DNA of 64,000 nt from Zootoca vivipara (lineage: Eukaryota). The stretch is from assembly GCF_963506605.1 (NCBI RefSeq), contig NC_083280.1:16926001-16990000 (forward strand). The letters are read 5' to 3'. Of the stretch, positions 868-53,536 are shown piece after piece. Every line of letters starts with the position of its first letter. The stretch's first letter is position 1. Position numbers and translations under genes: made by a program. The notes beneath the pieces are model-generated. The model saw only the letters and a program-made list of their open reading frames with translations, was not told the origin of the DNA and searched no databases.

Positions 868-2748
868 CCGTGTTTCCCCTTTTTTAATACGTACTCATAA
901 AGTAAGCCAGGGCAGCAATTTTAAGCATTTGAGAAATATAAGACATACCCCGAAAATAAGACATACCCCCCTGCCTGCCAGCTCGGGGCCTGGAACCAGC
1001 TGCTGCAGCGTGGAACGCTCAGCAGCGGCTGGCAAAGCAAGGAAGCAGAGCACGGAGATACGTATTAGCTGTAGCGCGGAAATGAGCTGTTCCTGGCTCA
1101 GCTGTAGCGCGCGCCTAGCTAAGTCAGCCGTGAGGAGGGAAAATGGCGTTTAAAAACGCCGTTTGAAGTGATTTCAGCCTGCCACCCTGCCGCCCGGAAC
1201 CGGCTGCTGCAGCGCAGAGCGCTCAGCAGCGCCCGGGTGGAGCGCCCAGCAGCGCAGACGGGAGCGTCCACCGGCGCGGACGGAGCGCTCAGCAGCGCCA
1301 GGCGGCGGGGCGGCAGGCGTCCTGCAGGAAGAGACGAGGCTGCTGGCTTGGGCACTCCTGACCCCAGCCGCTTCCACGCGGCAGCAGCAAAAGAGCTGTG
1401 CGGCCACATGGAGAGGCGAGCGCCCGAGCGGGAGACGCGCGCTCTGCAAAGCTCCGCACTCACCCCATCCGCCCGACGGGAAAGCGAAGTGGGGAAGAGA
1501 AAAAACCGAAGCGGCTCTTTTTCTCTTCCCCACTCCCCCCCCCGTCAGGCAGATGAAGCGAGTGCAGAGCTTTGCAGAGCGTGCGTCTCCCGCTCGGGCG
1601 CTCGCCTCTCCAAGCAAAGTGGGGAAGAGAAAAAGAGCCGCTTCGGTTTTTCTCTTTTTCTCTTCCCCACTTCGCTTTCCCGTCGGGCGGATGGGGTGAG
1701 TGCGGAGCTTTGCAGAGCGCGCGCCTCCCGCTCGGGCTCTCGCCTCTCCAAGCGAAGTGGGGAAGAGAAAAATCAAGTGTCGAAGATCCTCTGTTAATGG
1801 TAGAAAATGGGTGGATTTCTTGCCTTTTCCAGTCCTAGAATGCTATGCTTAATATTAATTATGCAAAGCAGTAATATGTATGCAATCATGTGTATGCAAA
1901 TACCTTTAATTAACATAACTTGCTCAATTGGCATATTTTCTTCTTAACCAAATATTTGAGTATTAGGAGAATTTACAGTTCTTTTGGCAGAGGGTGGTGG
2001 AATGGCTGGATGAAATGCATGCATGGGTGGTAATAGGAGAACAAAGATGAAGGGCACAAAGGTGGACCAGGAGGCTAGGAAGAGCCACCCAACCTTACTG
2101 CCCTGAGAAGTGTAGCCTTCTGGAGATAAGTGCTCCAATGCAGAAATTTATTGTGGGTGCAGGCTCTCCCATGGGTTAGCATGTTCTCTTGAGCGCATTG
2201 ATCTTTTCTCTCTACTGAAATTAGTGGAGCATCCTATTCTTATTCGAGTTCTCTGTGTGCATCACATCTCCAGGCTGTGGCTCAGTTGCAAAGCATCTGC
2301 TTTGCATGCAGAAGGTCCCAGGTACAATCCCCAGAATCTCCAGGTAGGACTGGGAGAGACTTCCCACCTGAAATCCTGCAGAAGAGCCACTGCCAATCAG
2401 TGTAAACAACACTGAGCTAGATTGACAATCGTCTGACTAGGTCTAAGGCAGCTTCTTATGGTCTGGATGGGTATTTTTGGATATTCTCTATGAGAACTAG
2501 ACACACGTTTTAGAAAAAAGCTAAATTATGCACCTGATGCCATACATACTTCTGTCCATGCATAACTGATGATGGTGATGATGGAGTCATATTTATAGTG
2601 GATCACAAACTGGATGTGCCAGAAAGTGTCATGTGTGATTGCACTACTAGAACACCAAGCCTTAAGACATCCCCTGAAAATAAGACACCGTGTGTTTTTT
2701 TGAGGAAAAAAAGTTATAAGACGGTGTCTTAAAAAAGGGGAAACACGG
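868..2748. mobile_element. Non-autonomous Tc1/mariner-superfamily (Tc2/pogo-like) DNA element with ~1.7 kb internal cargo
   Basis: TA|CCGTGTTTCCCCTTTTTTAA...TTAAAAAAGGGGAAACACGG|TA terminal inverted repeats (TIRs) with TA target-site duplication (TSD); subterminal AAAATAAGAC repeats shared with the short copy at 29775..30009. Confidence 0.8.
2273..2461 (+). mobile_element. tRNA-Ala-derived squamate SINE (Squam3-like)
   Basis: gctcagt...agcatctgctttgcatgcagaaggtcccaggt...ctccaggtagg...ctgagctagat...aaggcagcttc; related copies at 24041, 42075, ~55725 and 63045 (-). Confidence 0.75.
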
Positions 2749-24197: not shown

Positions 24198-26409
24198 AGT
24201 AAACACATTTAGGATTACACCTTAAAAAAAAAAACCAGAAACTTCCATAACAAAATCCTAGACAATCTTTTATTTTCACCTAGGCGTGACTGACATCGGT
24301 TTCCTATTATTATTTTGGCTCAAATCCAGTTTGGAAGCATAAATTGTCAAGCTTAAGAAAATGCCAACATCTGCTCCTCTCAACACTTGAATTCTTCTCA
24401 TAATCTCATGGACTGTTCTGAAAAACACAACGCTGGAAACTTGACATGTCTGCATTTCTCTGTCATAGGATTACTTCACCTTTAGCCTACAAGTAGCATC
24501 ACAGAACACAATGCTGAGAAGCGCTCTGTGATTCACTATGGGAAGAAAGGGAAAAATGTGAAGACTAGCACACTAAGGAGATTTTTCTTCTTCTTAAGAG
24601 GGCATAATATTCGGATAACGTTCTTGCTTCTTACCCTTTGTCAAATGGGGGAAATTGATGAATGATGACACACTATGCTGCTGTCTCACTTGCTCTGAAC
24701 AGAGGCAGTAGTTTCAAAGGTAACACAGATTTTCTGCACAGTAGTTCTTCATTATCACCACTGGTTGACAGGGTCAATCATCTGATGCAACTAGTATGGA
24801 AGATTGCTGATTCTCTTTCCCCTGGGCTTAATTTTAAACACCAACTTTTGGTTTTGCAATTTCACATGAAATGTGAAACTTCCAAAGTTCTAATCAAAGA
24901 TGGGTCTCGTATTTTCAAGTGGCATGCATTAGCAACCATCTAGAGAGAAGCAGATTATAGAATTGGAAGCATAATATAAAGGAGACTCACTGATTAGTAG
25001 GAATAAATCTCTGCACACTTACCCAGAAGTATGTCCCAATGAAGGCCCTACTTCTGAGTAAACATTTCCAGAATTAGGCTGCAGATCCAAGTTTCTCAGC
25101 ACACAACCAGATCTCTACACAGAAGTAAACCCCCCTGTGTTGAATGGGGCATACTCTTAAGAAAGTGTACAGAGAATTACAACCTTAAATGTACTGGAGA
25201 CCCAAATGTAGATGGCTTGTTAAAGCTGCATAATTCTCCCCCTCTCGATCACTACATCACCTCCTTTTCTATTGTTGGTAAGATTGTTTAATACTGTATA
25301 CAGTTTGAGAACTCACTTTCATTTTCTTCTTTTAACAGCAGCTGGAGCTACTAAACAATGATACATTGAAGTAAATCGCAAAACTGTCACCGATTTCAGT
25401 TTGCATCAATAGACATGAAAATTTACAATGCCTACAGGCTGTGGATACTTTTACTGGACTGATATTAAATATACCTAAAGATTCAATATAAAACGTCCAA
25501 CATGTTTCAAAACAGTTCATTAAGAGAAACCCTGATGCTATGCAGCAGAAAGCACCTTAGGAGCAGATAGGTGTGAAATTAACACAGATAGCATCTAGAG
25601 CAAATATCAAGAGCACCTAATCTAAGGTGATACATATTAAGAGGCAGCATTCATAGCGTCTGTCACACACACAGAGACGCACCCACAAACACTAAAATGC
25701 TACTTCTCAGTGTTACATTTTAAAGTTCTGCACATCTCTTACAGTACATGGCAGCATTGTCTGAATGACTCCCAGCAAAGAGCACATGTGAATCGCCGCT
25801 TGCGGAGAATGGCAATGGGTGAAAACGAGACTCCCTTCGAGTAGAAGGAGCATTTTCTCTAAGGACTCAAGAGAAATCGGGCATTGGCCAAAATCCCGAT
25901 GAGGAAAAGAAAGAGAAAGAAAAGACCGCAGGGCTTAGTTTGGCTTTTGTTTCTGAAGGAAACGCGTCTAGTTTGCATAATATGCGGGCACAAGAATATA
26001 CACACCCTCTTAGGCACCAGAGGGAAGAAAACAGCCGCGGCTCTTTATCAGTGCCTCGGAGGGATTCGCAAAGCAGCGTCTATGAAACCGAGGCGGCATT
26101 TCCTAAGAGATCGAAAGTGGCTTAAGTTGTTTTGCTGAAACATCTGGCATCCGCGATAAAAGAAAAAGGAGCAGCGTGCCGTTCTTTTGAGCAGCAAGGG
26201 AACATTTTTTTTTAAAAAAAATATTTTTGAGAACACCACCAAACACAACCCCTTGTGCTGTTGCCGTTCTTTCAAAAGCGCTGAAAATAACTATTCTATT
26301 TAAGAAAGAGAGATAGCCCAGCTCTGCTTCTTCCACGCCGCAAAAGCGGCGGGCGAAGCGGCGCTGGCTGCAGCACCCGGTTGTTGCTGCTGTTGGCGCG
26401 CTCGCCTAC

Positions 26410-26580
26410 CTGAGAGCCGGTCTGGCAATGCGGGCGACGCAGCTGTTGCAGGTGTGGCTGCACCCCTGGCTCACTCCGCAGCAGCAGCTCCTTTCACCGG
26501 AGCAGAGAACGCAGCAGCGAACGCGAGCACCGCCTCCGGGGTTGTTTCTCTCGCGTCTCTCAGCGCCTGGAATAGTTTCC
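26410..26580 (-). other. SERPINI1: Probable non-coding first exon of SERPINI1 (neuroserpin); 1..26409 would be part of its long intron 1
   Basis: Minus-strand donor CAG|GTAGGC at 26410/26409 on the left edge of the CpG island; synteny with PDCD10. No serpin coding exon was found in the window, so the identity is inferred from synteny. The TSS position is approximate. Confidence 0.6.
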
Positions 26581-26799
26581 CCCTTTTCCCCGCCCCGCTC
26601 TTTCCATACATGGTCAACGCCGCGCCTCCTTCCCCTGTCCCGCTCCCTGATTGGCTGGCTCTCCCACCCTCCTCCTGGCCCCTTTCATGCCTCCCTTTCT
26701 TTCCCCTTCCCGCCCCCTCCGTCGCCTGGCTTCGTCCTTCCCGCAATGCTTCTCGGGAGCTGTAGTCTTTCCGAGAAGCGGACTACAGGTCCCATGGGC

Positions 26800-27100
26800 C
26801 CGCGCGGTCGCCGGCTAGTTCCGGACAACGCCTGGTTGTGTGGTAACGGCGGCGGCGGCGGCTGGCGAGAGGAGGAGGAGGAGGGTGCTTCCTTTCCGGC
26901 TGGTACTTCCGGGAGCAGCGACGGTGGAGCCCGCTCGGGAGCCCTAAAAGGCTTCGAGGGGCGGGTGGGGCAGGGAGGGGAGGTAAGGAGGCTTAACTGC
27001 TGCGGCTCCGGCGGCCTTTACCGCTGTTGTTGTCGTCGTTTACCACAGCCATTACTATTACCCTTATCATTAGCGCCGGCAATGTCCGCAGGGGTCACTG
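26800..27100 (+). other. PDCD10: Probable non-coding first exon(s) of PDCD10, with candidate donors at 26983 (GAG|gtaagg) and 27101 (CTG|gtaggt)
   Basis: Plus-strand donor consensus sites inside the CpG island; the nearest coding exon has an acceptor at 40556, so an upstream exon is required. The start is approximate. Confidence 0.6.
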
Positions 27101-27864
27101 GTAGGTTTGCGCGGGGCCTAGCCGCACCGCAGAGGTTACGCCGCCCCGGAGGCGTAAGAGGCCTTGGAGAATCCCGTGGTCGGGATAGAACCGGCGAGGG
27201 GCCTAGTTGCCTCCGTCAGGCGCAGCTCGGAGGAACCCCAAGCAGGAGAGATCCTCCCTCCCCCCGCCAGCCTTCTCCCCTGTGGGGCAGGGCCTCTCGC
27301 CGACCCCGCCCCGAGATCTCCCAAGCGGAAGAGATTTGCCGGGAGAGGCTAGGCCGGTGTGTCTCCCAGGGAGGCGAGGGACGGGGCGGGGGGAGCAGGT
27401 GCAAGCTCTACGAAGCGGGGAGGTATGGCGTGTCCCGTTGGGGAGGATCTGGGGCTAGGGTGGCTTTGGTGCTGGGGGGCCAAGTACACATCAAGGGTAA
27501 GCGGGGAAGGTCAGAGGGAGAGAGAGAAGTGGGGTGGGGGAGAACTGGGAAGAGGAAGCAGTCTCGATGTGGGAGAGACCTTGAGCCTCTTGAAGCAAGG
27601 AAGGGTGTGTGTTTGCAGATATATATAACAAATATATTTCCCCCCCCCTTGACGGTATTTTGTCTAAATTATGCCAGTTATTTTGCTGAATAATAATATA
27701 ATATTGCAGGGGGTTGGGGACAGTAATGTTTTCCTCCCTCTGCCCAAAGAGGAACACAGCAGCATAGGCCAGAGAAGCCTGGTCTGTGTAAATAACAGAA
27801 GAAAAGAGACTGTCTCCTTTCAGGTTGCAGGTGGTAATGTGGTGGGCCATGTTCATTTTTATTA

Positions 27865-29774: not shown

Positions 29775-30009
29775 CCCTGTTTCTCATATTTTAAGACATA
29801 CCCATAAAATAAGCCATAGCAGGATTTTTAAGCATTCAAGGAATATAAGCCATACCCCGAAAATAAGACATAGTGATAGGCGTAGCAGCAATGCCGGCCA
29901 CGGCAGAAGGAGGAGGAAAAAAATAAGACATCCCTTGAAAATAAGCCATAGTGTGTTTTTTTGAGGAAAAAATAAATATAAGACATGTCTTATAATATGA
30001 GAAACACGG
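29775..30009. mobile_element. Short (235 bp) MITE related to the 868..2748 element
   Basis: TA|ccctgtttctcatattttaagacat...atgtcttataatatgagaaacacgg|TA; repeated aaaataagacat/aaaataagccat motifs. Confidence 0.85.

Positions 30010-40673: not shown

Positions 40674-53536
<12,863 letters not shown>

Follow-up and report, generated by a model that had tools for sequence, protein, structure and literature searches.

A multicopy Pack-TIR element carrying host DNA in the genome of Zootoca vivipara

We analyzed a stretch of 64,000 nucleotides from Zootoca vivipara (contig NC_083280.1, positions 16,926,001 to 16,990,000, forward strand), hereafter the window, to which all positions without a contig prefix refer. 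At 868-2748 it holds a 1881-bp, TA-flanked, non-autonomous element that is a real multicopy Pack-TIR. We consider it about 80% probable that this is a non-autonomous pogo-type transposon containing two host pieces, which moved as a unit to at least seven sites and was likely mobilized in trans by an intact Passer-type transposase with the same ends. The original prediction, that a lizard transposon had captured host DNA here, was upheld by TIR-bounded copies, a TIR-free donor and empty orthologous sites, all of which were found. The features of the window are as follows.

866-867, no strand: left TA target-site duplication (relatives carry a single TA at the site)
868-887, plus strand: left TIR, 20 bp, as in the autonomous elements (sequence comparison)
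868-965, plus strand: left terminal region, family-wide, with subterminal repeats (first 26 bases with 372 exact matches in the genome)
966-1377, plus strand: GC-rich interior with short modules common to sister subfamilies, and a separate 1030-1170 module
1378-1504, minus strand: captured EMX2 5' leader piece of 109 bp, plus a 19-bp insertion (donor C5:52602196-52602303)
1505-1772, no strand: repeats of the EMX2 piece in fold-back arrangement, both inverted and direct (self-comparison)
1770-2664, plus strand: captured AT-rich host fragment (donor C2:57742273-57743156, minus strand)
2273-2461, plus strand: old SINE carried inside the cargo, also in the donor (genome matches and donor alignment)
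2663-2748, plus strand: right terminal region, TIR at 2729-2748 (94% identity to the autonomous right end)
2749-2750, no strand: right TA target-site duplication (sequence read)
18597-18700, plus strand: left-end-only piece of a related MITE (sequence comparison)
29775-30009, plus strand: separate 235-bp TA-flanked MITE of a sister subfamily (end comparison)

The element, its cargo and the donor loci

The element ends in a perfect 20-bp TIR (868-887 and 2729-2748) bracketed by TA at 866-867 and 2749-2750, in agreement with the matching TIRs and TA duplications noted originally. The proposed homology to the MITE at 29775-30009 was also confirmed, as the first 98 and last 86 bases of the element align to the two halves of this MITE without large gaps. 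The MITE ends (CCCTGTTTCTCATATT and CCGTGTTTCTCATATT) are closer to those of a sister autonomous subfamily (L178-L182) than to the ends of 868-2748. Between the ends, the CpG-rich block described earlier was recovered at 966-1770 (GC 0.65, CpG o/e 0.91). The adjoining AT-rich DNA is a genuine host fragment as supposed, with its limits at 1770-2664 and not at 1790-2660; its 5' junction was placed at 1770 because cargo-bearing contigs of two related species (X14 and X15) align from there, other sequence lying beyond. The reported SINE at 2273-2461 has many matches elsewhere at 74-85% and is present in the C2 donor too. The octamer-like motifs, ATGCAAAG at 1861 and ATGCAAAT at 1894, are likewise present here and in the donor alignment, and nothing in the sequence suggests that they would matter.

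A genome search with 1790-2660, in which the best 40 of 4565 candidates were scored so that copy counts are lower bounds, gave at least eight long matches among 43. As capture followed by transposition had been predicted to leave, at least seven TIR-bounded cargo copies were found, on five contigs and all with different flanks; six of the seven have TA/TA target sites and one TT/TT (L004, C12:58622020-58623999). A TIR-free donor, also foreseen, lies at C2:57742273-57743156; element ends are absent for ~10 kb in both directions from it, and the nearest cargo copy is 12.6 Mb away. Its GC content is 0.42, and no exon was recognized in or beside it. The donor differs from the copies by 5.5-6.4% and the copies from each other by 0.1-3.1%, and 39 fixed differences set the seven copies apart from the donor. 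Microhomology of AAA and TA was read at the junctions of this cargo, and up to 8 bp in sister elements, these being short tracts read by eye. The 18 bp at 1777-1794, absent near the C2 donor, were considered as filler and rejected as such, being shared by the copies and the relatives' contigs; a later deletion of them in the C2 donor seems likelier.

At the window's own insertion locus, to which the empty-site test applies, the left and right flanks are joined at one TA in all three other species (X14, X15 and X18), which is the empty site that the prediction called for; contig bins of relatives without coverage were excluded as evidence. In a same-species run (X7), contigs end at 865 and restart at 2749, as expected with the element present. 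The right flank at 2749-2762 has 13 bases compared with 29 in the three relatives, ~17 bp being gone from ~13 bp past the junction.

Sequencing depth on cargo versus flanks was 9.65 versus 11.1 in X14 and 40.3 versus 42.2 in X15, which fits one donor without amplified copies. The cargo contigs of these relatives, probably orthologues of the C2 donor, show 3.2-4.9% divergence from the cargo in the window, comparable to the 3.1-4.2% seen for orthologous flanks; the C2 donor of the Zootoca genome itself is farther away (5.65%). Because the relatives' divergence is similar to that of the flanks and below that of the donor, capture dates from around the time of the species split, or else the donor evolved rapidly. 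Amplification of the cargo element came later.

The GC-rich interior at 966-1377 had no match in the interiors of the autonomous elements, and its derivation from an autonomous element was rejected, the similarity being confined to the ends. No donor was found for module 1030-1170 among the best 40 of 119 candidates scored, of which eight were fetched. A pattern search with the EMX2 unit gave 145 matches, 100 of them listed; among those listed, one isolated match (C5:52602223) has no TIR in the surrounding 4 kb and sits 167-275 bp before the ATG of an EMX2 exon. The EMX2 piece is antisense in the window element. By sequence comparison, 868-2748 is a two-donor chimera of this leader piece and the C2 fragment. 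An apparent splice donor (GG/GTGAGT) in the EMX2 unit was rejected, since it is a change that arose in copies on C5 and C8 and that EMX2 itself lacks, and no spliced reads were seen.

A palindromic subfamily (17 loci) was considered as a cargo-free parent and rejected, since all 17 loci hold a remnant of the C2-cargo end (~60 bp in 16 and ~10 bp in one) with copy-type alleles. As it keeps these copy-type bases, this subfamily descends from a cargo-bearing element. The interiors of five other members (L044, L056, L052, L076 and L025) contain expanded micro- or minisatellites, with up to eight alternating EMX2-derived units.

A partner transposase and a cargo-bearing family

A search of the genome for DDE_1 domains gave 96 matches, and 50 loci were examined. 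All eight fetched copies of one subfamily (L170-L177) have the same TIR as the window element, TA/TA target sites and a 431-aa ORF with 99.8-100% identity among them; two (L174 and L175) are identical (100%) over 3081 bp on different contigs. This single ORF encodes HTH_Tnp_Tc5 and DDE_1 domains with DD35D catalytic spacing (D174, D278 and D314), in line with the pogo-like assignment made originally. BrkDBD was not detected at E 0.001, and the nearest protein matches are annotated as POGK-like; the protein is identical to one on record for Z. vivipara. The MITE at 29775 has its match in L178-L182, an autonomous sister subfamily.

In the published descriptions of the Passer (PS) group of the pogo superfamily (PMC7386202, PMC9976928), its members have DD35D spacing, HTH_Tnp_Tc5 (BrkDBD being optional) and DDE_1 domains in one ORF of 400-500 aa, TIRs of <30 bp, TA duplications and a length of 1.6-4 kb, and occur in reptiles and bats; DD35D is also found in Fot elements, and POGK is derived from Passer. 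L170-L177 resemble Passer in spacing, domains, ORF, TIR and TSD, features on which their putative placement in this group is based. Unlike the Zootoca family, Passer as described in these sources is given no cargo-carrying derivatives (PMC7386202, PMC9976928). The transposase is apparently intact, the shared ends make mobilization of the window element in trans likely, and the family is probably still active.

L170-L177 vary in length (3078-3715 bp) by a ~155-bp tandem unit at ~520-1190, upstream of the ORF. For the transposase at L175:2352-3644 (C4:33.91 Mb), identity is 85% with a domain of a protein modelled in a Rhinolophus bat and 72-78% with database entries from snake, frog and Pipistrellus. 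These matches are a hint of horizontal transfer, and of fusion with host gene models.

To describe the family at large, 56 members were sampled by position alone from the 100 listed of the 372 exact matches to the first 26 bases: 34 of 35 on C1 (one already seen being excluded), six on C2 near the donor and 16 on C3. In the fetched stretch 51 of the 56 were closed, all of them TA/TA, with lengths of 747-2422 bp (median of sampled members 1354 bp). MITEs are short elements of a few hundred bp; the sampled members are too long for this class, which only 29775-30009 fits. DNA traceable to a TIR-free host locus was found in 36 of the 56, namely AGFG1-like cargo in 26, a CpG island at C2:82.29 Mb in six, and in one each ATXN7L2, a gene start at C9:59.38 Mb, a GALNT-like leader combined with C6:20.73 Mb DNA, and EMX2. 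The other 20 interiors have no traced donor, eight with distinct cargo and 12 matching no test segment. Capture is thus a regular occurrence in the family.

The ATXN7L2 cargo has 10 TIR-bounded copies, in which exon 1 is open with a splice donor and ~400 bp of intron 1 is retained; the C6 cargo has seven copies. The C2:82.29 cargo has 24, of which 23 have both ends bracketing or matching as expected and one is rearranged, and 17 copies of the C9 cargo, its piece in antisense, were checked. Another two-donor element is L080. Absence of TIRs at the donors was checked over at least 10 kb for five and over 3.6-4.8 kb for three. The GALNT name rests on Pfam domains, and the C9:59.38 gene had no Pfam match. 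The ArfGAP exon of the AGFG1-like donor matches 'Nucleoporin-like protein RIP' in PDB, a name that we take to be a synonym of AGFG1.

Donor searches for other cargos returned only loci with element ends: at all 15 further loci fetched for the L055 type and, with at least one end, at each of 30 for the L047 type. Two further searches gave 0 matches and 30 loci that were all element copies, respectively. The GC-rich cargos of L047, L055 and L057 resemble first exons (one with an ATG and splice donor, one with a leader-peptide-like frame); none of the three could be traced to a donor. In L074, the 3' junction of the ATXN7L2 cargo (~985-1015) contains a second occurrence of a short sequence that lies just within the cargo, as in templated end joining. 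Same-type copies were also seen in pairs 6-9 kb apart (C1:84651100-84660500 and C1:88643400-88655550), which suggests local hopping or tandem duplication.

The donors are mostly gene starts (AGFG1, ATXN7L2, EMX2 and a GALNT). Six of the eight are CpG-island-like compared with 8 of 349 background tiles (binomial P 2e-5 even at 10% background), the tiles being a rough background of gene-near regions and the bias open to inflation by amplification or by choice of interiors. Across five cargos, 58 CpG changes run from donor to copy and five the opposite way, a loss that fixes the direction of copying and suggests that the copies may be methylated in the germline. The insertion flanks are ordinary, with a mean GC of 0.41, and only 2 of 51 are CpG-island-like.

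Routes of capture

We propose that a break would arise inside an element, likely at GC-rich repeats or hairpins or after excision, and would be patched by copying an unrelated template with 2-8 bp of microhomology as a guide, whereupon the cargo-filled element would transpose and amplify. Hairpins in the repeat-rich interiors of the family could drive such breakage. CpG-island gene starts would be the usual templates, probably since they are open and GC-rich like the repeats of the element, and at least one template (AGFG1) went by way of spliced RNA. Later fold-back repair would have replaced most of the AT-rich cargo, producing the palindromic subfamily with its last 10-65 bp only. Aborted gap repair, the route named in the original prediction, may be the specific mechanism; none of the donors showed a capture intermediate or a precursor element, so that for this copy gap repair, fork switching and cDNA-templated repair are indistinguishable.

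In the AGFG1 cargo, exon 1 runs precisely into exon 2, of which the initial 31-34 nt are present, the 2315-bp GT-AG intron being absent, and this exon junction has 64 genomic matches. We fetched 20 distinct loci with the junction: in 19 both ends of the element are present, and in the remaining one the right end lies within range. Complete AGFG1 exon 2 was seen in the gene only (17 of 17 candidates scored). Such a precise intron-less junction requires an RNA or cDNA step somewhere, whether repair took place directly on an RNA template, a retrocopy existed and was lost, or cDNA converted the element afterwards. At L054 and L100 (C1:46.70 Mb), an AGFG1-type copy is apparently split by an insertion of several kb.

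It is possible, although rather doubtful, that capture itself proceeded from DNA and that the AGFG1 junction arose through an intermediate (a lost retrocopy or composite retroposon) or through later cDNA conversion. In favor of this, 44 bp similar to a dispersed repeat (86%) adjoin the exon-2 piece, but no TIR-free spliced copy occurred among the 20 distinct junction loci fetched of 64, and no retrocopy spanning exon 2 was found.

We regard as somewhat less likely still that RNA-templated capture is general, with breaks filled by cDNA from the 5' ends of nascent or spliced transcripts; the gene-start bias would follow from such a route. The exact AGFG1 junction at 64 genomic matches and the confinement of full exon 2 to the gene favor this route, as do the AGFG1, ATXN7L2, GALNT-like and EMX2 cargos, which begin at most 600 bp upstream of the start codon. 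However, ~400 bp of intron 1 is kept in the ATXN7L2 cargo, two cargos, including the large one of the window, are AT-rich DNA with no exon seen, and the C9 and first EMX2 pieces are antisense. RNA templating may therefore not be general, other cargos retaining intron or non-exonic DNA, and nothing in the sequence points to an RNA step for the large cargo of the window.

Composite transposition, in which two adjacent insertions or the bypass of an end would mobilize the DNA between them, has been put forward for Pack-CACTA in one published account (PMC13317346), and the family is abundant. It is nonetheless very improbable here, as the cargo junctions lack inner element ends, the donors are still in place and TIR-free, and most junctions join cargo to interior sequence and not to TA sites. 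Finally, the idea that two MITE halves inserted independently on either side of native SERPINI1 intron DNA, to which the related MITE pieces elsewhere in the window might lend color, is refuted here by the lack of the interior at the orthologous site in three species and its presence with both ends at six other loci.

Known capture systems and genomic context

The element has a non-TE interior between two TIR ends, parents without TIR elements, multiple copies at distinct targets and an empty orthologous site, and so falls under the Pack-TIR definition of Tan et al. (2021, PMC8277862). It resembles the Pack-TIRs of that study in host DNA between TIR ends, a TIR-free parent and distinct TSDs, and further in distal parents and, in the multicopy cases, GC-rich cargo; short microhomology, known from those Pack-TIRs, may be another common trait. 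That survey of 100 genomes, whose authors call their list conservative, names four multicopy Pack-TIRs (frog and alligator) besides Ssk-FB4 in flies, and gives zero for Anolis (PMC8277862). Unlike the Pack-TIRs as presented there, a single Zootoca family has eight traced donors, chimeric cargo, an intact-looking partner and spliced cargo, with subfamilies of seven to at least 64 copies (PMC8277862).

Family-scale capture with a preference for GC-rich genes, several loci per element and amplification after capture are likewise described for rice Pack-MULEs (PMC5861414) and plant Pack-TYPE elements, including Pack-Mariner (PMC8903248). Here, the preference for GC-rich genes was seen in six of eight donors and several loci per element in the window element and L080. 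Pack-MULEs, as characterized in that source (PMC5861414), are plant elements with MULE ends and 8-11-bp TSDs, whereas the Zootoca family has pogo ends and TA (51 of 51 closed elements) and is thus not MULE. In contrast to Pack-MULE and Pack-TYPE elements, its insertion sites show no CpG-island bias (2 of 51 flanks). The Heli1Xen1 Helitron of Xenopus, according to its description (PMC12001565), is also an active vertebrate family that recurrently captures gene pieces, but by a rolling-circle rather than a cut-and-paste TIR element. A paper on Z. vivipara elements describes, in the part relevant here, a truncated mariner-like piece and no capture (PMC10058329). Our literature search found no description of the Zootoca family, although repeat databases or supplements could hold one.

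The phenomenon is known in kind, and what is new is its scale, the superfamily, the gene-start bias and the spliced cargo. We tentatively put forward, as a possibility that falls short of probable, that a currently active pogo/Passer family acts as a vertebrate Pack-MULE system, in which most of several hundred non-autonomous copies would carry host DNA, preferentially promoters and first exons, assembled out of several chromosomes and at least in part copied from RNA. If so, a cut-and-paste transposon would be harvesting the 5' ends of transcripts, and capture could be observed in cells. Such plant-style gene shuffling has rarely been reported in vertebrates; multicopy capture by TIR transposons has been considered rare in animals, and its mechanism is unsettled even in plant Pack-MULEs. 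One vertebrate genome here combines donors and dated copies with empty sites and a transposase that looks intact, so that the routes of capture become directly testable. Scattered promoter and first-exon pieces, among them an intact ATXN7L2 exon 1 that retains its splice donor in 10 copies, could give rise to new sites of transcript initiation, and lacertid annotation acquires spurious CpG islands and gene models from the family.

The coding exons of SERPINI1 (neuroserpin) lie on the minus strand beyond the left end of the window, the first ~19 kb from the element. A CpG island at 26001-27700 and a PDCD10-like first coding exon at 40674-40770 (plus strand) are arranged head to head with SERPINI1. 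In mammals, SERPINI1 has an untranslated first exon in such a CpG island. The element would thus lie in SERPINI1 intron 1, as originally proposed, if an untranslated first exon is located in the island at 26-27.7 kb. In three RNA runs (~6% of each), the unique flanks had zero depth and the cargo hardly any, the reads falling on the family ends and the SINE, so that the runs are uninformative on this copy. Many RNA reads from other loci contain the family ends (842-948 and 2661-2767), for the most part in short MITE forms.
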